From Eledone cirrhosa (Eukaryota), in the NCBI GenBank assembly GCA_964016885.1, contig OZ024747.1, forward strand, positions 89,962,001 through 90,026,000: DNA of 64,000 nt, in the 5' to 3' direction. How positions within the stretch are numbered: position 1 is the first letter of the stretch; every line of letters begins with the position of its first letter. Positions 3,826-62,249 of the stretch are shown here, one piece after another. Below the pieces are notes generated by a model. That model did no database searches, was not told where the DNA came from, and worked only from the letters and a program-made list of their open reading frames with translations. The position numbers and the translations under genes are program-made.

Positions 3826-3919
3826 TATCATAATTAATTACTATTTTTCACAACTGAACAGTATTTAGATTCTGCTTAGCAAATAGAACAGTAGTGGTTT
3901 CTCTCTGTATTGTATATCT

Positions 3920-4121
3920 TCATCCTCTCCTCATCACCATCATCATCACCGTCATCATATTCATCATCACCGTCATCATATTCATCATCACCTTCATCAT
4001 ATTCATCATCACCGTCATCATATTCATCATCACCGTCATCATATTCATCATCACCTTCATCATATTCATCATCACCTTCATCATATTCATCATCGCCTTC
4101 ATCATATTCATCATCGCCTTC

Positions 4122-4153
<32 letters not shown>

Positions 4154-4172
4154 CACCACCACCACCGTCATA

Positions 4173-4206
<34 letters not shown>

Positions 4207-4307
4207 CCACCACCGGCATAACAACCACCGCCACCATCATCATCATCACCACCATCGTCATAACCACCATCGTCATCATCACCACCACCACCACCACCAC
4301 CGTCATA

Positions 4308-4341
<34 letters not shown>

Positions 4342-4856
4342 CCACCACCGGCATAACAACCACCGCCACCATCATCATCATCACCACCATCGTCATAACC
4401 ACCATCATCATCATCACCACCACCACCACCACCACCGTCATAACCACCACCACCACCACCACCACCACCACCACCACCACCACCACCACCACCACCACCA
4501 CCACCACCATCATAACCACCACCACCACCACCATCACCACCATTGTCATCATCACCACCACCACCACCCCCATCACCACCACCATCATCACCACCACCAC
4601 CACCACCCCCCATCACCACCACCATCATCACCATAACCATCACCACCACCGTCATAACCACCACCACCACCACCACCATCACCACCATTGTCATCATCAC
4701 CATCATCACCATCATCACCCCCACCACCACCACCACCATCGTCATCATCGCCATCATCACCATCATCCTCACCACCACCAACACCACCACCAACACCACA
4801 ACCACCATCATCATCACCACCACAACCACCACCATCATCATCATCATCACCACCTT
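3920..4856. repeat. Compound (CAT/CAC)n trinucleotide tract with higher-order 21-bp and ~120-bp periodicities
   Basis: Visible directly; it produces spurious poly-His/Thr/Gly/Asp ORFs in several frames. Confidence 0.95.
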
Positions 4857-8247: not shown

Positions 8248-8756
8248 GTATGATGTATGTATGCATGTATGTATGCATGTATGTATGTATGTATGCATGC
8301 ATGTATGTATGTATGTATTATGTATGCATACATGCATGTGTGTGTGTATGTATGTATGAATGTATGTGCGTGTATGCATGTATGTATGTATGCATGTATG
8401 TATGCATGTATGCATGTATGTATGTATGTATGTATGTATATATGTATGTATGCATGCATGTATGTATGTATGTATGTATGTATTATGTATGCATGCATGC
8501 ATGTGTGTATGTATGTATGAATGTATGTATGTATGTACGTATGCGTGCATGTGTGTGTATGTATGTATGAATTTATGTATGTATGTGTGTGTATGCATGC
8601 TTATATGTATGTATGTGTATATGTATGTATATATGTATGTATGTGTATATGTATGTATATATGTATGTATGAATGGATGTATGTATGTGTGTATGGATAT
8701 ATGTATATATATATATATGCATATATATACATCCACATGCTTGCACACACACACAC

Positions 8757-8804
<48 letters not shown>

Positions 8805-9185
8805 CATATATATTATATATGTATGCACACACTCATATATAAATATGTATGTATGCTTGTATGTTTATATATATGTATGTCTGTATGTATGTATGTACAT
8901 ATGTATGCATGTATATATATATATATATGTATGCACACACTCATATATAAATATGTATGTATGCTTGTATGTTTATATATATGTATGTCTGTATGTATGC
9001 ATGTACATATGTATGCATGTATATATATATATGTATGTACGTATATATATATATGTATGTGTAGGAGGTGAGTTTTATTGTAGCACAATAAAGCAATGCA
9101 AAATATCGGATAAGTAGCACTCTACAGTTTGTAAGACTTGAGTATAAATAATATAAGATCAAAAGATGGTTAAAAGAGTTACAAG

Positions 9186-9256
9186 TATTTTATTATGCGC
9201 ATTTCAAAAACAAATATCATCACGGGATGATATCTGCGTTCTCATCAGATAAAATA
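9186..9256 (-). ncRNA. Minimal type-I hammerhead ribozyme (Penelope pLTR type)
   Basis: Minus strand reads UAUUUUAU-CUGAUGA-[16-bp stem II, loop CCGU]-GAAA-UGCGCA-UA|-AUAAAAUA: perfect 8-bp stem I, palindromic stem III AUGCGCAU, AUA cleavage triplet. Confidence 0.85.
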
Positions 9257-9291
9257 GGGGAGTAGGAAAAGGTAAGGAAGAGGAAGAAAGA

Positions 9292-10653
9292 AAAATAAAG
9301 GATGGTGGGGGAGGAGTATAAGAAGGAAAGATGAGAGAGGAGGAGAAATGAGTGATAGAGAGAGAGAAATGGCCTTTACAACTGAGAAAACATTGTCTCA
9401 CAGAGAGAAATTAAAAAACCGTTGGAAGATAATAGATAATTTAAAAGATTTTGAAATTAAAAGTTAATGAGGTTTATGCATGAAGAAAAAGGAATTAAGA
9501 ATAGTATTAAATTAAGGTTTGTATATTGAAAGGTTTAATAATATGTGCGAAATAAAAGAATTTATTAATATGTATTATTAAAATTAAAATATTAAGGATA
9601 TTAAGGATATAATGTGAAAGAAAGAGAAGAATAAATGAATTATGAATTTAGAGGAATTAGTTAGGGTTTAAGTTTGTTTTTATGTATTGTAATATGTAAA
9701 CGTAAATAGTAGGTTTAAAACGAGCACGGAAGGAGAGAAGAAAAAAAGAAAGTTTAAGAAAGAAAAATATCTAACGTCAAAAAGTATATATGTTTACGAA
9801 AATGTTCTAATGGTAATATTATAATATATTAAAAAAGGAATTAGTTAGGGTTTAAGTTTGTTTTTATGTATTGTAATATGTAAAAGTAAAAGTAAATAGT
9901 AGGTTTAAAACGAGCACATTATTACTCACTACAGCATTATCCATTTTTCCTCATATTATTGGCCATTAAAACTATATTTTTTTAATATAGTTTTAATGGC
10001 CAATAATATGAGGAAAGAAGGAAAAATGGATAATGCTGTAGTGAATAATAATTTTTCTACTTTAGGCACAAGGCCAGCAATTACCCAGTGCATTACTGGT
10101 ACTTTATTTTATCGACCCCGTAAAGATGAAAGGCAAAGTCAACCTCGGCGGGATTTGAACTCAGATCGTAAAGGGACGTAACTATGCTGGAAAGCATGGC
10201 GTCCGACCCTCTACCGATACTGCTAATCCACCGCTGTAGTGAGTAATAATGTGCTCGTTTTAAACCTACTATTTACTTTTACTTTTACATATTACAATAC
10301 ATAAAAACAAACTTAAACCCTAACTATTTCCTTTTTTAATATTATAATATTACCATTAGAACATTTTCGTAAACATATATAGTTTTTGACGTTAGATATT
10401 TATCTTCCTTAAACTTTCTTTTTTTCTTCTCTCCTTCCGTGCTCGTTTTAAACCTATTATTTACGTTTACATATTACAATACATAATACATTATCTTGCA
10501 TTACATAATACATTATCTTACAACGGTTTTTTAATTTCTCTCTGTGAGACAATGTTTTCTCAGTTGTAAAGGCTATTTCTCTCTCTCTATCACCCATTTA
10601 TCCTCCTCTCTCATCCTTCCTTCTTATACTCCTCCCCCACCATCCTTTATTTT
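9292..10653. repeat. Large fold-back inverted repeat centred at ~9981
   Basis: 9292-9435 mirrors 10513-10653 and 9680-9978 mirrors 9984-10485, around a 5-nt T loop. The right arm has a SINE insertion and a ~240-bp deletion. Confidence 0.93.
10053..10232 (-). mobile_element. SINE family A with 18-bp target-site duplication
   Basis: Flanked by gctgtagtgaataataat (10035-10052) and gctgtagtgagtaataat (10233-10250). Confidence 0.9.
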
Positions 10654-10719
10654 CCCCAATCTCAACGGTTGAGCTCTGGCCGTTTCAACATCTAAATCCG
10701 AACTGAATCACTGGTGATT

Positions 10720-16330: not shown

Positions 16331-16447
16331 GAAAACTAGCCAGCCTACAGGTGCATGGTCAGTAAAATGTATTCACCTGACCTGGCTAGCCACATAACCG
16401 GACAACTTGTGTAATCCATCCAAGCATGGGAAAAAGATGTTAAACAG

Positions 16448-17040
16448 TGATGGGGTATGGTGATGGTGATGATGACGATGGTGGTGATGGTTATGGTGAT
16501 GATCATGGTGACGATGATGACAATGATGGTGATGATGATGATGGTGCTGACGATGAAGGTGATGATGGTGATGACTATGATGGGGATGGTGATGAGGATG
16601 ATGGTGATGATGATGACGGTGATGACAATGCTGGTGATGATGGTGATGACTATGATGGGGATGGTGATGAGGATGATGGTGATGACAATGATGGTGATGA
16701 CTATGATGGGGATGGTGATGAGGATGATGGTGATGATGATGATGATGATGACAATGATGGTGATGATGGTGATGGCTATGATGGGGATGGTGATGAGGAT
16801 GATGGTGATGACGATGATGGTGATGATGGTGATGACTATGATGGGGATGATGATGATGATGATGACGGTGATGACGATGCTGGTGATGATGGTGATGGCT
16901 ATGATGGGGATGGTGATGAGGATGATGGTGATGATGATGACGGTGATGACGATGCTGGTGATGATGGTGATGTCTATGATGGGGATCGTGATGAGGATGA
17001 TGGTGATGATGATAATAACAATGATGACAATGATGATGTA
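16448..17040. repeat. Compound (GAT/GGT)n tract with higher-order units
   Basis: Visible directly; recurring ctatgatggggatggtgatgaggat sub-unit. Confidence 0.95.
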
Positions 17041-22758: not shown

Positions 22759-23040
22759 TACAATATTAAATAAATGGAAAACTATATTTATAAAACCATA
22801 TTTATTTCATTATATATATTTCGGGGATATCATATTAACAATATGCTATGCCTTCATCAGACAAAATACAATATAAACAGTTTTATAGATAAATATATTC
22901 GACATATATATAATGAAATAAATATGGTTTTATAAATATAGTTTTCCATTTATTTAATATTGTAAATATACTCCAAGTATTTGTCGAGTGCTTTTATATC
23001 AGTTATAAATATTTACTAGTTGTAACCCAACAATTTTAAA
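22759..23040. mobile_element. Penelope-like pLTR relic with ~60-bp perfect inverted repeat
   Basis: 22759-22819 is the reverse complement of 22904-22964; it overlaps a hammerhead core and sits inside (TA)n. Confidence 0.7.
22803..22868 (-). ncRNA. Minimal type-I hammerhead ribozyme
   Basis: Minus strand reads UAUUUUGU-CUGAUGA-[AGGCAUAGCAUAUU-GUU-AAUAUGAUAUCCCC]-GAAA-UAUAUA-UA|-AUGAAAUA: 8-bp stem I with 2 G-U pairs and a palindromic stem III. Confidence 0.78.
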
Positions 23041-23048
23041 TATAACTT

Positions 23049-23115
<67 letters not shown>

Positions 23116-26049: not shown

Positions 26050-26099
<50 letters not shown>

Positions 26100-27858
26100 A
26101 TATATATATATATGTGTATATATATATATGTGTGTGTGTGTATATACACATATATATATATATATATACATAAATATTATATATAGCATCATCATCATTT
26201 AACATCCATCTTCCATGCTAGCATGTCTCAGAATTAATAGTATATACATATAGATATAAATACATATTAATCATATATATCATTTATACATATTTGGTAG
26301 TTTTGGTTACCTAGGTGATTTAATTTTCTAAGCTACAGTGAAATCAAAGTAGCTAGAATAAAGAAAGAATTAGAATGTTCTAGAAGTTCTTGCGACTCTT
26401 ATTTATCAAAGATTTCATACTTTGTGTAAAAGATGGACTCCATAAGAATTGTTTTGCTGAATGCTAGGAAGATATTTATGTTGAATGAAAATATCTATGG
26501 AGGATCATAAGAATTAAGATAAACATGACTTGTACGATGAGTAATATATTAACTTGCAGGAAACATAGAGTAAAACTGATTCAAGAGAACAGATAGGCAT
26601 TAAAGACGTTGGTTAATATAAGTAGGAGTGACAATTGTAGTGGTATGGATATGTGGTTTGAATGGTTGATGATCTAAACTGTAAATGCAGCATCGCTGAA
26701 TGGTTAAAAGTTTTACTTTGTAATCATTAAGTCTTAGGTTCGATCCCACTGCATGGCTGGCATTTTAACGCTTTAGCATTTAAACCAGCCATATTTGGCC
26801 AGAATTCTCTCACCTCTTTCTGTTCAAACCGGCCATAACTGGCTGCTCATACTTATGTTAAGGTATTGTTCTCAAAATAAATGCTCAGCCACCCACTTTC
26901 ACATACATTTCATCAACAGGTTTTTTCATTGATTGAACAACTGGAACATTCATCAAATATAAGGGAGATCTATCGTTATATATTAACCCTTTCATGACTA
27001 TATTTCTAACGAAATACACTCTCTTATAATTAACTAATGAAGAATTTTGAAGGGTTTACTAAAATTTTAGTTATTTTATTACTGAAATATTAACTTAAAC
27101 CACCCATTTTGAAGGTTTCCAATTTAAATAAAAATCTTCCAACATAATTTTATATAAGAACCTTACATTAAATTACAATCTTTGTAATGATATAATTAAT
27201 AATGTTATGAGTATGTTATGTGTCTGCTTGTTTGTGTTTGTGTATGTCTGTATAGTAGAGAAATATATGTTGTAATGAGTCACACAGGTGTATGTATTAA
27301 ATATACCTGAATGTTGTGTATTTGTCAGTCAAAACGTCTGTATGTAATTAATCTGTTGTGATTGTATATCTATATATATAAAATTGAGGATGTCTGTCCC
27401 TGTGTGTGTGAGTTTGAATCCCTAAAACTCGAGAAGCACCCAACCGACTGTTTTCAAACTTTACACATGTAATGCTTATGTTTCAGGGAGTGTTCTGAGC
27501 AAAACAAATTTAGGCGATTTAGCGATCTCTCTCTATAATTCTTAGTCTTTCTCTTTTTAGATAGATACATACATATAACGTCGCGCCCTTATAATATTTG
27601 TCTGTATGTCTGGCTGTCTGCATTACGTCACTTCCCTGAGGATGTCAGTCTGTGTGTATGTGTGTATGTGAGTTTGAATGCCTAAAACTCGAGAAGTACC
27701 CAACCGACCTTTTTAAAAATTTACATGTATATTACTTATGTTTCAGGGAGTGTTATGCACATATAATAATTCAACTTTTTGATCCCCATTAGGTGAAAAA
27801 CTGCGTTTTTTCAGGTTTTTATGGGTTTTTTGAGGCGTTACGTCAGACCGATTTCCTT

Positions 27859-42324: not shown

Positions 42325-45045
42325 ATGGCTGTTATAAGAGTTGGATGTTTAAATATGCGCGGCTTGGTGATGTCCTGGAAGCAGGGCAAACTCTTAAATG
42401 ACCTCAGATCGCACTAATGGATGTGATAGCTATTTGCGAGTCCAGAATCAGCAGCGAGCACCAACTGGCCCCCATCTTCGACGACTTTGAGATCTATGCA
42501 TCTCTCTGTCAGCTGGGAGGTGGGGGCGGGGTGGTCGTTCTACTATGAAAACACCTGGGCCTCGCAACACGAAAGGTACACCTGGACCCGGAGGGTCGAC
42601 TGGTGGTTCTAGACGTAAGCAGTAGTGAAGATGAAGCCTTCAGCTGGTGGCAGTGTATGCCCCATCTGGGATACCGCGACCGGACTTCTTCCAACGCCTA
42701 GAGACTTTTCTGGGAGCGTCTCGCTCCTTGCTTTTAGTGGGGGACAGGAATGGTATCCTGGATGCACGTTGGGACTATGTAGAGGCATGTCCCGATAGAG
42801 GGGGGGGGGGTGTAACAGCCTCAAACGGTTAATCGGCCGATTTGATCTGGCCGATAGATATCGACTAGATTTTCCGACTGTGCCACTGTGGACGTGGACT
42901 AATCGTAGCGGAACATCTAAGTCATACCTAGATAGGTTCCTAGTTAGAAGGATAGGGACATATTAAACTGTCCCCGAATGTTCATGGTTGACTATTCGGA
43001 TCACAAGTTGGTGACCGGAGTGGTCAACCTTGATAGAACCCATAGACAAGGACCCAGTTACTGGAAGCTAAACTTGTCCTAACCGACAAACAAAGCTTAC
43101 AGTAAGCGGATTAGCACTCTAGTTAAGCAGCGGTTGATGGGGGCAATTGTCAACAGCAGGTGGTGGGGCTCTCTCAAGAGAGAAATTAGAATAGAATCGA
43201 TAGGTTTTAGTCAGGAATTAGTATCAGATAGGAATAGAACTGAAAGGGAATTGATAGATAGAGTAGAAGAGGTGATTAGGAGTGGCAACGTGGCCGGCGT
43301 GCTGGCATCAAGAACGGCCCTACACCAGTTCTTTGACGGGAAGCACGAGGGGTGTGTTGTCAGGAGTAAAATACGTGCTCTAGATAACGAGGGAGCCAAA
43401 GCTGTTAGCTGGGCCTGAGTGACAGGGCAAAAAGTGGAAACAAGTCCACGATTCGGTCTTTGAAGGACCAGGATGGATCCTTGAACCTGAGCGGATGTGC
43501 GAGGCCTTTCAACGGCGCTTTGCACGACTGTTCGGGAGGGGCGGCGGGCCGGGTGAGACCCTGGATTTCAGTCCATACCTCAGCGGTCTGCCGTGGCTCT
43601 CGGACGGGGAGGCGAAGTCCTGGAAAGGCCGATTTCAGCCGCTGAAATAGGGGAAGCGCTGAGCCAATGCAGCAAACGCAAATCTCCCGGTCTCGATGGT
43701 CTACCATACAAACTTTATGTAGCAATGCCGGACTTGTTCTCCGATCTCCTCGAGGTGGTCTACTGCAACTGGCAACAGAATGGGAGAATTCCTAGTTCTG
43801 TGACCAAGGGCGTAGTCACGCTGGTGAGGAAGGACGAGAACAAGGGGGATGACATAGATAACTTCAGGCCCATAACTCTGCTAAACACAGAGTTAAAGAT
43901 CTGGTGTTAGCGAAGAGGTTGGCGCTTGTCGTCGGGAACCTGGTAGGAGAAGCGCAGTCATGCGCAATCCCATCCAGGTCCATACATGACAACCTCCACC
44001 TCATGCGATACATTGTAGAGAGGGTAGAGAACGAACCGGCTTTGGTGGGGCCCTGATCAACTTGGATCAATCAAAGGCGTTCGATAGGGTCGACCATCGG
44101 TACCTGGATGCGGTGCTCGCAGCGGCAAGCTTCGGACCCATTTTCAGGGGCTGGATTGCTGCAATGCACAGCAGCAACACCTGCTCGAGGTTCAAGGTGA
44201 ACGTCTACCTCTCGGAACCGTTCCAAAAGGCGCGTTCCATCCGACAGGGATGTCCTCTCTCCTCCATTCTGTATGTGCTGGCTCTCGAGCCACTACTGCG
44301 GAAGTTGGAGCTGTTGCAGGGAATCCCCTTGGAACCGAGAAAAGTGGGCGACTGGCACATTGAATGTGCCCAGGCGCTCACGGCCCTCTGGCAAGCGGAT
44401 CCGGAAATCAATGGAGACTCAACCTCAACATTCTATAGAGGGTTGGTGTGCAGCAAGTGCGATGACGCTCTCGGAGAGGCTCTGGGCATGGAGGAAGACG
44501 AGCTAGCCAGTCTGTTCGGTAGGACGTTTGGCTCAGGACCGATGGACAACTTCCAAAAGTCCCTGGCTTGGCAGTGCTACCGAGGAGCTCTACCCATTCG
44601 GGACAAGCTCTACCCCTCGAAGAAGATCTGTCCGAGATGCGTGCGTGATGAGGAAACAGTCGGGCACACATTCAAACACTGCCCAGGCGTTACTTACCTG
44701 TGGGGCTATGTGGAACGACTACTATCGCGGGTGGGACCAATCCGGTTGACCACCGAGTACATTGTCACGATCAAACTGCCTCCCCCCTTCAACAATGAAG
44801 CAGAGGCGGTTTTCCTCTGTGTGATAGCTATGGCGAAAGAGGTTGTATGGTGGACGAGGTTGAAAGGGCTGAGGTCAGACATTTTTCTCTCCGGCCAACA
44901 ACTAGTTTTTTTTTCAAGTACCATTTTAGAAGAAGGATCAGAATGGAGAGAGAGGTGCTCTACCCCAGCAAGTTTTATGGAAGGTGGGTGAAAGTGGCAA
45001 GAATGGCCTGAGTGAATGGGCCTTCTCTCTATATCAGCCTGTAGG
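42325..45045 (+). pseudogene. Tx1 ORF2 (APE endonuclease - reverse transcriptase - zinc finger), disrupted and internally deleted
   Basis: MAVIRVGCLNMRGL, VYAP, LLLVGD, SYLDR, SDH, YWKLN; KSPGLDGLP, NFRPITLLN, DQSKAFDRVDH, SIRQGCPLS. A deletion at ~44340 removes the YADD motif; then CPRC...ETVGH...C. Confidence 0.9.
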
Positions 45046-54534: not shown

Positions 54535-55080
<546 letters not shown>

Positions 55081-55988
55081 ATTTAGATTTGCAGAAGAAT
55101 ACATATATAGATATAAATAAGTGCATGAATAAGTGTATACATAGCTGTAGGTTTGTAAATTAATTTATTTTATACTGTTTGTAACTAAAACTGTAAAAGT
55201 TGGTATTTTATCTTACCAAAATAAAAGTATATGTTGTGTTTATGTACAGCTTTCTGTTATAAGATGTAAGTGGATTGCATGATAAATAAGTGTTTGCTTT
55301 TGTTTCATTAGCTTGTAGTCATGAGTTCAAGTTGTGAAGAGAATAACAGTAAGAAACTCCAGTATATAGTTGCTGATTTGACTCCAGTACATAGCTGCTG
55401 ATTGGATTCCCTAATTACCTTTGACATAGCTTCTTATTCAACTCTTGTTCTGGTTGGATGCAGATTGAGATGGTTGACATCAATAAATCTATTTCATATT
55501 AAACTCACTACAGACAAATACCAACTATCAGGAGAATATATTTTTGCAACTTCAGGATTAGGACACCATTCATCATCGTTGTTTAATGTCTACTTTCTCT
55601 GCTAGGAATTCTATGTTCATCAATTAAACACAAACAGCCAAGAATTGTATGGACACCAGGGAGGGAGATAAAGATATTCAATTTAACCCTTTAGCATTTA
55701 TATTACTCTATATATACCATTGTATTTTCACAGTAAAAGCTTTATCTTACACAAATATATCCCATAATATCAAATCTATGAGATTTTGACATTAATTATT
55801 TTGAGAACAATACCATCACATCAGTATGAGTGGCCAGTTATGGACGGTTTGAACAGAAAGAGGTGAGAAAAGTCTGGCCAGATACAGTCAGTTTAAATGC
55901 CAAGGAGCTAAACCGTGTCTGAGATATAAGACAATGATGGAGAAGGTGATAAAGAAGTTAAGAGCTGAAACACTCGCTTGAGGAGAGG

Positions 55989-56997
55989 GGGTTTCTTCTC
56001 TGAAGACCTTCTGCTGTCCAGCTCTCCTTAGAGTTTCTTCTCTGAAGACCTTCTGCTGTCCAGCTCTCCTTAGAGTTTCTTCTCTGAAGACCTTCTGCTG
56101 TCCAGCTCTTCTAAGACTTTCTGCTCTAAAAACCTTCTGCTGTCCAGCTCTCCTTAGAGTTTCTTCTCTAAAAACCTTCTGCTGTCCAGCTCTCCTTAGA
56201 GTTTCTTCTCTGAAGACCTTCTGCTATCCAGCTCTCCTAAGAGTTTCTTCTCTGAAGACCTTCTGCTGTCCAGCTCTCCTAAGAGTTTCTTCTCTGAAGA
56301 CCTTCTGCTATCCAGCTCTCCTAAGAGTTTCTTCTCTGAAGACCTTCTGCTGTCCAGCTCTCCTGAGAGTTTCTTCTCTGAAGACCTTCTGCTATCCAGC
56401 TCTCCTGAGAGTTTCTTCTTTGAAGACCTTCTGCTGTCCAGCTCTCCTGAGAGTTTCTTCTCTGAAGACCTTCTGCTGCCCAGCTCTCCCGTTCAGCTCT
56501 CCCCAGAGTTTCTTCTCTGAAGACCTTCTGCTATCCAGCTCTCCTGAGAGTTTCTTCTTTGAAGACCTTCTGCTATCCAGCTCTCCTAAGAGTTTCTTCT
56601 CTGAAGACCTTCTGCTGTCCAGCTCTCCTGAGAGTTTCTTCTCTGAAGACCTTCTGCTGCCCAGCTCTCCCGTTCAGCTCTCCCCAGAGTTTCTTCTCTG
56701 AAGACCTTCTGCTATCCAGCTCTCCTGAGAGTTTCTTCTTTGAAGACCTTCTGCTATCCAGCTCTCCCAAGAGTTTCTTCTCTGAAGACCTTCTGCTGTC
56801 CAGCTCTCCTGAGAGTTTCTTCTCTGAAGACCTTCTGCTATCCAGCTCTCCTGAGAGTTTCTTCTTTGAAGACCTTCTGCTATCCAGCTCTCCTAAGAGT
56901 TTCTTCTCTGAAGACCTTCTGCTGTCCAGCTCTCCTGAGAGTTTCTTCTCTGAAGACCTTCTGCTGCCCAGCTCTCCCGTTCAGCTCTCCTAAGACT
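55989..56997. repeat. 42-bp minisatellite (~23 units) with a recurring 55-bp variant
   Basis: Unit gagtttcttctctgaagaccttctgct(g/a)tccagctctcct(t/a/g)a; variant with cccgttcagctct at ~56488, ~56669 and ~56976. Confidence 0.95.
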
Positions 56998-57507
56998 TTG
57001 AAGACTAGAAAGATGATATCATCGATGAAGTAAATATTATTTCTTCAAAAACTGTTTGCTAATGTTAAAATAGAGTAGATGTTAGGTTAATATAATGAAA
57101 CAATTATTACAAGACTAGATGTTCAGACTCTATTGCCTGTCAACATAGATTGATACATCAAAGTCCAGGATTTCATAGCAAAGCTCCTCACACTAATTGT
57201 ATACAAATGGGAAAATTTATTACAAGTCACTGAAAGAAAAATTAAAATAAATGTATTAGTCATTATATGTGTGTATTTGTGTATGTGTGTGTATATATGT
57301 GTATGTATGTATGTATGTATGTATGTATGTATGTATGTATATATGTATTTATGTAGTCATGCATGCATGTATGTATGTATATATGTATGTATATATGTAT
57401 GTATATATGTATGTACGTATGTATGTATATATGTATATATATGTATGTATGTATGTATGTAAGTATGTATATATGTATGTATATATGCATGTATATATAT
57501 ATATGTA

Positions 57508-58129: not shown

Positions 58130-59702
58130 TTAGATGCAACATTTTTGGAATGTTTTACATATTTTTACTGTTCCATTAATGGATTGTTCTTGTATTTTCC
58201 TCACTAGTTGTGTTCCTTCTGTCCCTGTGAAGCCTAGCGTCTCAAGATTTGTATTGAGGCAGTTACTAACATATCCCAGTGCCCCAATAATCACAGGCAT
58301 AAATCTGAAGGTGTAATCAGGGTGTAGTATCTGCAGATTTCTCATCAGTTCTGCATAAATATTCTCCTTTTCGCTAATCTTTAATATCATATTGGCATCT
58401 GCTTTCTTGTCCCTTTCCCATATCATAATATCTGGTCTGTTATGCCTGCGTTTTATTGCAGTTTTTACTGGAACATTCCACCAGTACTCTTTCATATTAT
58501 GTATATGGATGTCTTCCACATTTCTGTAGCTTTTAATGTATTTATTATCGGGGCTATCTTTTCTACGGATTGCATTGTAGTGTTTTGCCTGCATCCCTAT
58601 CTCTTTTGTGAATCACGTATTTCGTGTTAATCTCCTGTTCTTGGATTGCAAAAGCGTATCCTGCAAAGTGGGAGCCAACATAGCGGTTGTTGGTTCAAGA
58701 TAGACTACTTTCCTTATCTATATTACTCTCACTCTGGAGCTTCCTGGCAACATATCCATGCATGATTTTTTGCTGATAAGCATGCAGTTTTTCATCCATG
58801 GATTCACTGCGATACTGCTGAGTGACTTCCCTGGGTGTGAGTTTTTGATTATCACACAGGGAATATCTCTCGAGGAGTTCTTTTCCAACTCTCATGATCT
58901 TATCTGTTTCATGCAGATAGACTTGCTCGAGAGACAGGCTCCTACGCTTCAAGGTTCGTAGATGTTGTCGGAGGGATATGATGCGACATTCAAATGCTGT
59001 TTGGACTGATGTTAGGCCTCTGCCTAACATCAGCTTACGTTTCAAGTAAAGGCTGTCTATGTCACTGTTGATGTGGAAGTTTCCAGTATTGTTTAGTATT
59101 TTTCGAGTTCTAACATCAGCTGCTCAGATTTCGTCTATCGTCCAATTGAGTATTCCAAACGTTGGTGTTAGGACAGGTGCAGCAAACACATTGTGAGCCA
59201 CTGTTTTGTTTTGCGCAGAGAGTTCCAATGACCATATCTTTCTTAATCGGGTGTAGTATTCCCTGGTTACACGTTCCTTATTACAGATACCATTATAGGA
59301 TATGTTCTCATCTATCCCCAGGTATCTGTAGCAGTCCTCATTAGATATTGATTAAACAGTTAGGCCATTGATGACAATGTTGCTAGATTGAGTTGTTGTT
59401 TTTCCCCGCTTTACAGTCATATATGAGCATTTATCTTGGCCAAACGCCATTCCTATATCCTTTGAGAACGGTGTAACCAGGTCAATATTTTTCTTCATCC
59501 CATCCATTTTCTTGGCATAGAGTTTCAGATCATCCACAAAGAAATTATGGGTTAGGTTCATATTTCTGTCCTCTTGTGAGCCAATGATGTATTCTTCACA
59601 TTTCTTGAGCAGAAAGGACAAGAGGTTTAATGACAGGATGAATAATATCACAGAGAGACTATCTCCCTGAAATATACCCCTGCGATATTTTATTTTATCA
59701 GT
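58130..59702 (-). pseudogene. R4/Dong-type LINE fragment (RT plus restriction-like endonuclease)
   Basis: RGIFQGDSL, HNFFVDDLKLY, IGMAFGQDKC, YLG, GRGL, MHG, AIQEQEI, NRPDIMIW (REL), PVIIGALG; several deletions and frameshifts. Confidence 0.88.
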
Positions 59703-61139
59703 GAATATATATGTATCAGTGAATATGTATCAGTGAATATATATGTATGTATGCATGTATGTATGTATATATGTATGTATGTATGTATGCATTAAATTAA
59801 TATATATCTTTATTGTACTGTATCATTTACTGTGTTGTTTTCTGTTTATCTTTTTGCATATGCATATATATATATGTATGTATTATATATATGTAGTGTT
59901 AAGAGTTTCTGTAGAAGACTTGATAAAGGTAAAAGAGTGCTCTATGTTAAGTACAGAGCTAAAGTATATTATTGTAAATAAATTCTCAACACAGTTGCTT
60001 GCTACCTAAGGTTTCAAAGCGTACTCTAGCATAGGTCTTAGAGACGGTATATTTGCAAGTGTTGCTTATCTTTCAGTCAATATCAAGATGGCCGATGTTA
60101 TTTATATGAGATCTCATCAAGTGCAAGGGAGGTAATAATAATGTAATATTAAATTTGATTTTGTTATACTCTTGTGTCTGTAAGTTTATGTTTTTTTAAT
60201 GTAATTATAATTGCAATTGTTCAAGATTTGCATTGTGTATATATGTGTTTGTGTTTATCTATGTATAATTATATGGATTATTATAGTAAATATATGTTTT
60301 TATTAAGATGTAGAGTATTCTTAAATATTTATATGCTATGCACACACACACACATACACACACACACACATATTCATATGTGTTTGTGTATAGAACAATG
60401 AAAAAAGAAAACAAAATGCAGATGTAGGTAATCAATTAGTTCATTGTTTTACAATCATTTCAGAGGGTTGATTGCCCTCCCATACACTTCTATATTACAT
60501 TTCCATATTAACCCCTTAGCATTTAAACTGGCCATATCTGACCAGATTTCTCTCACCTCTTTCTGTTCAAACCGGCTATATCTAACCAGATTTCTCTCAC
60601 CTCTTTCTGTTCAAACCGGCTATAACTGGCCAGATTTCTCTCACCTCTTTCTGTTCAAACTGGCTGTAACTGGCTGCTCTAATGTTAATATATTGTTTTC
60701 AAAATAAGTAATAACAAAATCTTATAGGCTCGAGATTATATGAGGTAATTAAGTGAGGTAAAGGCTTTACCATGAAATATATAATAGTAAATATAGAGTA
60801 ATGATTTCTTATATAGGCACACGGCCAGAATTTTGGGGGGAAGGGGAAAGTTGGTTAAATCGACCCAGTGTGGGACTGGTACTTTATTTTATCGACCCCG
60901 CAAGGATGAAAGGCAAAGCTAACCTCTGTGCGATTTGAACTCAGACCGTAAAGGGCCGTAACTCTATGCTGCAAAGCATGGTGTCCGACTCTCTACCGAT
61001 ACTACCAAAGGGTTAAACATGTGATAAACCATGCCAAATATGGATAACATAAGAAGGATCAGTTTGATTTCATCCCTTCCAATCAATGCAAGCATGAAGA
61101 TGATGAAGATAATGGTGATAATGACGAATTCTGAAGTGT

Positions 61140-61290: not shown

Positions 61291-62249
61291 TATCTGCCTA
61301 ATAAACAATAGTTAAATGAGAGATGAAATATTTAATACTTGAAATTTTGAAAAGCTAAAATAAATATAATATGCAGTGAGAGAAAAACAATATTTGTTGA
61401 TAACTAAAGCTTTCATTTTTCTAACATAATACATGAGGAAACACTTAACATGTTTCAGCCTCCTTGGGCATTATCAGAGAAATTGTAGCTTTGCCTTAAC
61501 TACCTAAACAGATACATATATTCATTGGTTAAAAAAAAATATAGAATCCTAAGACATATGCCTGATAGATACTGTGTAAAACGAGTGAAATAATATTTAA
61601 AACTTGTTCGGGTGAGGTTTATGTAATCATGCTTACTTTACATATGAATAAACATATCTATTAGATTCTAGGCTCTTCTAACATATGAGTGCATTGAAAA
61701 TGCTTATGTTCTTATAACACAAACACACACACACACACAGGCACACACAGATGCACACATAGATAAATACAGATAAACACATATAGATATAGATATATAT
61801 GTGTTTATGGGTATATGAAAAAGAACAGTAATATGAAAGATGTATAGTATGTGAGCATGGTATTGTGTATATATATATATATATCATCATCATCCTTTAA
61901 CGTCCATCTTCCACGCTTGCATGGGTTTGGACGGGAGTTTTCCCACTTGAGGCAAGATTGGTTGTCTTAGGACTGCCTGGCGGGTTTTCTACGGCTGGAT
62001 GCCTTTCCCAACACCAACCACATTTACAGTGTGGACTGGGAGGTTGTTACCGTGTTACCCACACGGCCACATTACAGCGTGGACTGTGTTTTTTTGTCGT
62101 GACACCTACACAACCTCATTTGTTTTGGACTGGGTGTTGTGGTACCAACATAACTTTACATTGAAAGGGGTGGTGTATGGGGTGGGGGTAGTGGGACGGG
62201 GGTGTATTTTTGTTAGAGGTGCCTACTGACTGTAGGTTTCGCTTTGTAC

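Follow-up and report, generated by a model that had tools for sequence, protein, structure and literature searches.

A motif of hammerhead type on the minus strand of the window (the whole 64-kb stretch of DNA analyzed here) raises three questions: whether it is a genuine ribozyme, what kind of element it belongs to, and whether this copy could still cut RNA. The original prediction took it for a minimal type-I hammerhead from a Penelope-like element (PLE), next to a giant palindrome, in a recent and possibly active copy. Our reading, to which we assign a probability of roughly 0.85, is that the motif is a hammerhead in the 3′ pseudo-LTR (pLTR) of a truncated, ORF-less PLE with Hydra-clade motifs, which in intact tandems likely cuts RNA by means of a paired, palindromic stem III.

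The motif and the copy that carries it

Read on the minus strand, the motif has the core segments CUGANGA, GAAA, and UH in the correct order, with three helices around the core and helix I open (Table 1). All eight pairs of stem I are Watson-Crick, and helix III has just 2 bp in the monomer. Stem II spans 16 positions, of which 15 are paired, three of them as G-U (9241-9206, 9237-9210, and 9234-9213); the single mismatch is a C.U at 9238/9209, the fourth position, with 3 pairs before and 12 after it. The letters thus bear out the complete core, the perfect 8-bp stem I, the self-complementary stem III, and the 16-bp stem II with one mismatch that had been predicted. The label "minimal" is inexact, as stems I and II are long and stem III alone is weak. 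The 10.1-11.1 pair of this copy is G-U (9241-9206) and does not match the consensus G10.1-C11.1. A stem I longer than 8 bp, predicted in several lineages with no fixed register, is not claimed.

Table 1. Coordinates of the hammerhead, of the element copy that carries it, and of other repeats in the window
Feature	Position	Strand	Remark
Type-I hammerhead motif	9256-9186	minus	letters read and descriptor match; AUA cleavage triplet
Stem I, 5′ arm	9256-9249	minus
CUGAUGA core segment	9248-9242	minus
Stem II, arms	9241-9226 / 9221-9206	minus	loop 9225-9222
GAAA core segment	9205-9202	minus
Self-complementary palindrome (loop/stem III)	9202-9195	minus	AUGCGCAU
H17	9194	minus	A
Stem I, 3′ arm	9193-9186	minus
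Predicted cut	between 9194 and 9193	minus	after AUA
3′ end of element (pLTR end)	9060-9259	minus	long 3′ end at 9060, then (TA)n/(TATG)n
PLE "tail"	9060-9150	minus	in 31/73 sampled copies
Junction of copy-specific deletion	9259-9260	minus	~100-110 nt, directly 5′ of stem I
Element 3′UTR; left palindrome arm	9260-9917	minus	~184-nt internal repeats; joined to RT-endonuclease ORFs in other copies
Short inverted repeat of 3′UTR piece; palindrome center	9918-10052
SINE-like repeat	10053-10232	plus	18-nt target-site duplication 10035-10052 / 10233-10250
Second 3′UTR copy; right palindrome arm	10233-10666	plus	inverted, internally deleted; ends before hammerhead
(TA)n/(TATG)n microsatellite	8400-9059		insertion site
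Second hammerhead, other lineage	22803-22868	minus	loop III UAUAUA; A.C at 10.1-11.1; C.C at position 4
Inverted partial copy, with second hammerhead	22901-23115
Further remnants	26056-26225, 54622-54744, 61759-61939
LINE-type RT fragment	43990-44988	plus	RVT_1; zf-RVT below cut-off
LINE-type RT fragment	59355-59729	minus	RVT_1
42-nt minisatellite array	55884-57091
CAT/CAC trinucleotide-like long arrays	3889-4490 and 16380-17010		opposite orientation, ~70% complementary

A descriptor search of the RNAMotif type, one of the checks that had been proposed, returned 9186-9256 as its sole match in the window. At lower stringency (stems I and II of at least six pairs, palindromic loop) none of 60 Markov controls matched, and still looser matches numbered two in 60. 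The core letters alone occur twice in the window against 0 in 100 shuffles, and the folding z-score is -2.65, with 2 of 200 shuffles equally stable. The Infernal/Rfam check came out against the prediction, with no hammerhead row at E <= 10 for 9100-9400 and no hammerhead among the 150 rows listed of 314; the microRNA rows were rejected as microsatellite and palindrome artefacts.

In the 3.0-Gb genome that was searched, a 33-mer from the 3′ half of the motif has 11,086 exact matches and the corresponding 33-mer of a sister subfamily 9,368, with 0 for the reversed control of each. A pattern located beyond the ribozyme has 7,165 matches, and the first 60 regions listed gave our sample of 73 copies; 61 copies span the motif, 53 are ungapped, and 48 have an intact core. 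Similarity among copies ends at window position 9060, where (TA)n starts, and nearly all sampled copies run into (TA)n at the 3′ end. That end lies at one of two places, ~45 and ~134 nt past the predicted cut site: 42 copies stop near 9150-9143 and 31 reach 9060. These two ends are a match for the optional PLE tail, a feature that Frangieh et al. (2024, PMC11167929) connect with reverse transcription starting at two sites, and a PLE "tail" is also defined in PMC8557442.

The window copy consists of 3′UTR and pLTR end alone, from 9060 to about 10250 on the minus strand, and no ORF remnant of the element was found in the window; a plus-strand, endonuclease-like reading at 9420-9580 was dropped, as the actual ORF lies on the strand of the hammerhead and farther 5′. 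The predicted giant palindrome is real, comprising three arm pairs (9292-9444/10501-10653, 9680-9935/10233-10486, and 9918-9978/9984-10052), and belongs to the same element as the hammerhead; judged by its sequence, it is the element's own inverted 3′UTR. The SINE-like repeat within it has 25 more matches in the window and occupies the identical place inside the PLE 3′UTR in two fetched loci (L052 and L025), being carried there in one sub-lineage; we take it to resemble octopus SINEs. Inverted 5′-truncated copies are typical of PLEs (PMC8557442), and here reverse transcription would have begun at the long 3′ end, halted in the 3′UTR, and left an inverted second piece.

The window copy is 96-97% identical to its best relatives (about 4% apart), and the palindrome arms differ at ~10 of 396 aligned positions (about 2.5%). 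With an octopus substitution rate of 0.0036 per Myr (PMC13282606), this suggests an age of 3-4 Myr, a rough figure that assumes identical arms at insertion and an applicable octopus rate. The proposal of a recent, possibly active copy is not supported: besides this divergence, the window copy has no ORF, lacks the ~100-110 nt 5′ of the ribozyme, and carries one hammerhead, for which the window offers no partner from its own family in the same sense. The subfamily of recent origin is a different one, a sister whose pLTR is 87.6% identical to that of the window and which is more than 10 times less diverged, so that the description fits the family and not this copy. Probably the window copy dates back a few million years and is inert, a relic whose hammerhead we consider very unlikely to be active. 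As a locus it is ordinary, one among more than 20,000 relic retrotransposon ends.

The parent element and its relatives

Longer copies extend 5′ of the motif through a 1.2-kb 3′UTR into an ORF of the same sense, which in these other copies carries the motifs YRDDGL, DKT, CxCX5C, and CxxC..E..N..CxH. The change from DKG to DKT is present (HSDKTNNLY), the N-terminal RWK region reads RRLRW with K replaced by T or I, and the linker CxCX5C takes the form CNCRIKNKC; the putative endonuclease has no CCHH, and its CxxC and CxH flank a conserved E and N (read by eye). The predicted model of an intact ORF (pLDDT 79.8), which includes a C-terminal VYECK...TYFG motif and a folded C-terminal domain, most closely resembles telomerase RTs in fold (ranks 1, 2, and 4), and Atlas neighbors of the protein carry RVT_1 and GIY-YIG. 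Going by this model, the sister copies have a single ORF with a telomerase-like RT fold. Pfam gave no match for the intact ORF protein, with RVT_1 and GIY-YIG each matching just 1 of 22 aligned relatives; PDB sequence searches with it gave nothing credible, and its one named homologue is from Argonauta.

A protein search with a query from the window's subfamily gave 20,621 candidates, of which 150 were scored, with frames counted by eye. Stop-free frames of 821 codons were found in 51 of the 150, all of them 81-83% identical to the query, and a full stop-free frame in none of the 24 scored matches that were at least 85% identical. Intact elements occur either as inverted pairs or head to tail in tandem, where each unit of 3.7-3.9 kb has its own single hammerhead. 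The unit length of 3,896 nt exceeds the "generally under 3 kb" described for the Hydra clade, a figure of descriptive and not diagnostic value, and the predicted cut site lies 185 nt upstream of the first ATG. The median difference among 17 intact frames is 4.5 of 2,463 nt. Loci L181-L196 of this young subfamily (e.g., G000:C2:134082300-134092200) contain as many as four or five units in direct tandem, and the subfamily is likely still active.

Tandem units forming pLTRs with a hammerhead, inverted 5′-truncated copies, and an optional 3′ tail are PLE traits, and the predicted placing of a type-I hammerhead in a PLE pLTR is upheld by linkage to RT-endonuclease ORFs and by tandem pLTRs in other copies; we are nearly certain that the motif is a PLE hammerhead. 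Placement in the Hydra clade is suggested by motifs (DKT, RW, CxCX5C, CxxC/CxH, and insertion into (TA)n) rather than by a tree with reference elements. These, together with a single ORF for RT and a putative C-terminal endonuclease, a sense hammerhead near the 3′ end, and a common U before GAAA, are shared with Hydra-clade PLEs, for which hammerheads have been published, including that of the octopus element Hydra-1_Obim (Craig et al., 2021, PMC8557442). The present family is not Hydra-1_Obim, from which it differs in its hammerhead sequence and in a visibly diverged protein; it also shows clear tandems and many intact copies, whereas Hydra-1_Obim is described with "no pLTR". Compared with the values in PMC8557442, the unit is longer (3.9 kb with a 1.2-kb 3′UTR, against "generally <3 kb"), stem II extends over 16 positions and includes a C.Y mismatch at position 4 (3-7 pairs being listed there), and stem III is a perfect 8-nt palindrome (against 3-4 pairs around 1-3 nt).

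Published pLTR hammerheads of PLEs likewise have type-I topology, a weak palindromic helix III, a predicted dimer, and thousands of dispersed single copies and opposite-strand pairs, but the stems I and II found here are longer, no bulged base lies between 9 and 10.1, and G10.1-C11.1 is not conserved. Poseidon PAc of Anolis (PMC11167929) resembles the present element in its tandem units, pLTR hammerhead, two 3′ ends with tail, and AT-rich targets; it belongs to another PLE clade, its cut falls inside the ORF rather than ahead of the first ATG, and its tail is 30-40 nt long against ~85-90 nt here. Non-LTR retrozymes (Cervera and de la Peña, 2020, PMC7229834; bioRxiv 10.64898/2026.07.22.740005) also carry type-I hammerheads in repeats, and those of amphibians share activation as a dimer (PMC7229834), but their tandem units are non-coding and 170-400 nt long, whereas the element found here is coding and 3.9 kb long. 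Published accounts of hammerheads already cover PLE pLTRs, the Hydra clade, and an octopus Hydra element, and the present feature is a known trait of such elements. Neither the present family nor a C.pyrimidine mismatch at position 4 was found in the literature, where subscription papers, the supplements of PMC4209133, and the Octopus vulgaris library may hold them; the O. vulgaris repeat library has 31 recently active Penelope-like families (PMC13282606).

Other hammerheads were met in the fetched DNA. Another very young hammerhead-bearing repeat (L056:4560-4760 and L131-L150) has 1,316 candidates, two 3′ ends, head-to-head pairs, and top copies that are 98-100% identical; no linked ORF was established in 20 fetched loci. 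Three hammerheads (L054:5782(-), L034:272(-), and L004:3027(-)) share a loop III segment of 7 nt (CCACUGG), as in published Hydra hammerheads; the L054 motif follows a distant Hydra-like ORF, at ~1 kb on its 3′ side. Within 700 nt at L192:5734-6406 there are four hammerhead motifs from three lineages, apparently nested insertions into one (TA)n site.

Selection on the fold and the 10.1-11.1 pair

Within the 53 ungapped copies, all six shared variants of stem II exchange a Watson-Crick pair for a wobble or the reverse, N7 alone varies among the core letters as a shared change, and two-sided changes of a pair are absent. Across lineages, we aligned 15 of 34 groups, omitting decayed single copies, four groups with other loops III, a four-copy A.C variant, a G.A variant, and two doubtful matches. 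In this 15-row set, 15 of 19 pairs change on both sides, which 0 of 500 shuffles equaled, and 97.9% of positions pair against 32-58% in slid controls. These percentages are inflated because the descriptor had demanded pairing, and the count was therefore redone on 254 matches that a scan for the core letters alone picked out of 757 kb of fetched DNA (0-3 per shuffle), a set dominated by two families that had been searched for. The covariation check proposed for stems I and II thus yields two-sided changes between lineages, which extend to the loop III palindrome, and none within the 53-copy sample.

Among the 254 core-letter matches, 10.1-11.1 is paired in 242 (A-U 130, G-U 84, G-C 27, and U-A 1). 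In the main lineages, loop III has self-complementary inner letters (GCGC 180, AUGU 34, AUAU 13, GAUC 2, and ACGU 1). At position 4 of stem II, no pair is formed in 248 of these matches and in 14 of 16 clusters, and 12 clusters have C on the 5′ side; of the two exceptional clusters, one is a chance-like match and the other a lineage whose first pair is G.A.

The G-U pair at 10.1-11.1 had been attributed, as probable, to CpG decay. U11.1 occurs in all 53 ungapped copies, which were sampled regardless of the ribozyme, with A (35), G (17), or U (1) at 10.1, and the youngest intact elements also have U11.1, paired with A; this indicates that the G-U pair was inherited by the window copy and is not a lesion of that copy. 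Genome-wide, 770 sites have another letter at 11.1, which is C in 91 of the first 100 listed. In 20 regions with a non-U 11.1, G10.1 accompanies C11.1 in 27 of 29 copies, 28 of which are from one diverged lineage. As the pLTR tree is poorly supported (1 of 15 inner branches starred), we used trees of the ORF. In the protein tree, rooted on distant relatives, the G-C lineage branches off first, with support of 82/92 for all others; the G-U subfamily of the window follows, and the A-U subfamilies are nested within (87/99; 100/100 with DNA). The outgroups are long branches, the tree does not settle the state at the root, and A-U also occurs inside the window's subfamily. The branching order fits a walk from G-C through the G-U wobble to A-U.

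Decay in the window copy itself is thus contradicted, but with G-C in a diverged sister lineage a C-to-U change of a master element, which transposition afterwards multiplied thousands of times, is plausible. An origin of the G-U pairs in A-to-I editing was rejected, single-copy changes showing no sense-strand excess of A>G over T>C (3 vs 5, 17 vs 19, and 21 vs 40). Departures at this pair have precedents: Hydra hammerheads often have U before GAAA, two of them with G-U (Penelope-13_HM and Penelope-17_HM; PMC8557442 file S2), and natural hammerheads depart from G10.1-C11.1 even to U-U (PMC3088659). PMC544870 holds no data on the 10.1-11.1 pair.

Cleavage, alternative readings, and meaning for the family

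Closing the palindrome AUGCGCAU within a monomer gives 2 bp and a tetraloop at a predicted cost of 3.5 kcal/mol, whereas two copies would form an 8-bp intermolecular helix with a predicted self-duplex energy of -10.5 kcal/mol. Together with the natural 3.9-kb tandems of the sister subfamily, this agrees with the original suggestion that the palindromic stem III suits a dimer. A read-through transcript of 3.9-kb units would carry one hammerhead per unit; two of these would join their palindromes as an intermolecular stem III of 8 bp, and cutting after AUA, upstream of the first ATG, would yield unit-length RNA, and the element's own protein probably binds and aids folding. We lean toward dimer cutting in vivo. 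The dimer model is that of Cervera and de la Peña; dimer cutting is low, with none by the single minimal motif, and PLE hammerheads cleave little in vitro (PMC4209133); AUA triplets occur in nature but are cut more slowly (PMC1636495). The predicted probability of stem I in the window copy is 0.6-0.8 with flanks of up to 40 nt and at most 0.01 with a 150-nt 5′ flank or the full tail, the latter in window, young, and A1 copies alike. These low values in long context are in line with the protein-assisted cutting of the Anolis element, for which cleavage was nevertheless dispensable for insertion in vitro and no RNA ends were observed at the cut site (PMC11167929).

The same features could serve a hammerhead that cuts as a monomer, closed by its 2-bp stem III and tetraloop with help from the PLE protein or tertiary contacts, the palindrome being secondary. 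An axolotl hammerhead of just this form self-cleaves to 22% as a monomer and invertebrate retrozyme hammerheads cleave efficiently (PMC7229834), the Anolis PLE ribozyme depends on protein (PMC11167929), and the tandem partners sit 3.9 kb apart, so far that they may pair poorly during transcription. A monomer loop, however, need not have four inner letters that are self-complementary across lineages, and the energetic cost of its closure also speaks against this reading, which we regard as unlikely, if worth keeping in view. Less likely again is a fold kept for a role other than cutting, such as binding RT or placing the two reverse-transcription starts, with cleavage weak or incidental. The dispensability of cleavage in the Anolis element in vitro (PMC11167929), the two 3′ ends past the cut site, the drift of 10.1-11.1 among G-C, G-U, A-U, and A.C, and the disfavoring of stem I in long context would all agree with it; against it, the core letters are constant in all lineages found, and N7 as the only shared core variant fits selection on the chemistry, although the scans demanded those letters and only the 73-copy sample is unbiased in this respect.

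Three further readings concern what the motif is rather than how it works. The window copy could be a non-autonomous unit of retrozyme type that yields small circular RNAs, as many copies are short and ORF-less and PLE pLTRs are given as the origin of animal retrozymes in a preprint of 2026 (bioRxiv 10.64898/2026.07.22.740005); yet the short copies seen are single or head-to-head inverted pairs, the same-sense repeats in fetched loci are 3.5-3.9-kb ORF-bearing units, no short non-coding direct tandem units with a hammerhead occurred in those loci, and the window copy has its one hammerhead, all of which makes this quite improbable. Co-option of the window copy by the host as a regulatory ribozyme is more improbable still: its core and stems are intact where 25 of the 73 sampled copies have a damaged or missing core, but two thirds of copies are just as intact, and the 71 reading frames of the window contain no host-gene family above threshold, only two RT fragments, in a search that short exons would escape. 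Chance occurrence in AT-rich DNA, for which the absence of an Rfam match might be adduced, has a negligible probability and is refuted by the Markov and shuffle controls, by the more than 20,000 exact partial copies, and by covariation.

We thus prefer a PLE hammerhead that, in intact tandems, likely cuts through paired palindromes. It is conceivable, as a tentative refinement, that this represents a dimer-plus-protein sub-architecture in which an obligatory C.pyrimidine at position 4 of stem II replaces loop 2 as the site of tertiary contact or RT binding, alongside a strictly palindromic stem III. If true, the dozens of near-identical intact elements in tandem and the series of G-C, G-U, and A-U lineages would make the role of PLE hammerheads directly testable.

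Cutting by PLE hammerheads is low in vitro (PMC4209133) and, in the one element reconstituted, protein-assisted but dispensable (PMC11167929). Rfam, moreover, overlooks a motif of which a single animal genome has tens of thousands of copies. In that genome, a very young Hydra-type element combines intact ORFs and natural tandems with a series of lineages, and this series shows which features are kept (the palindrome and the position-4 mismatch) and which one drifts (10.1-11.1).
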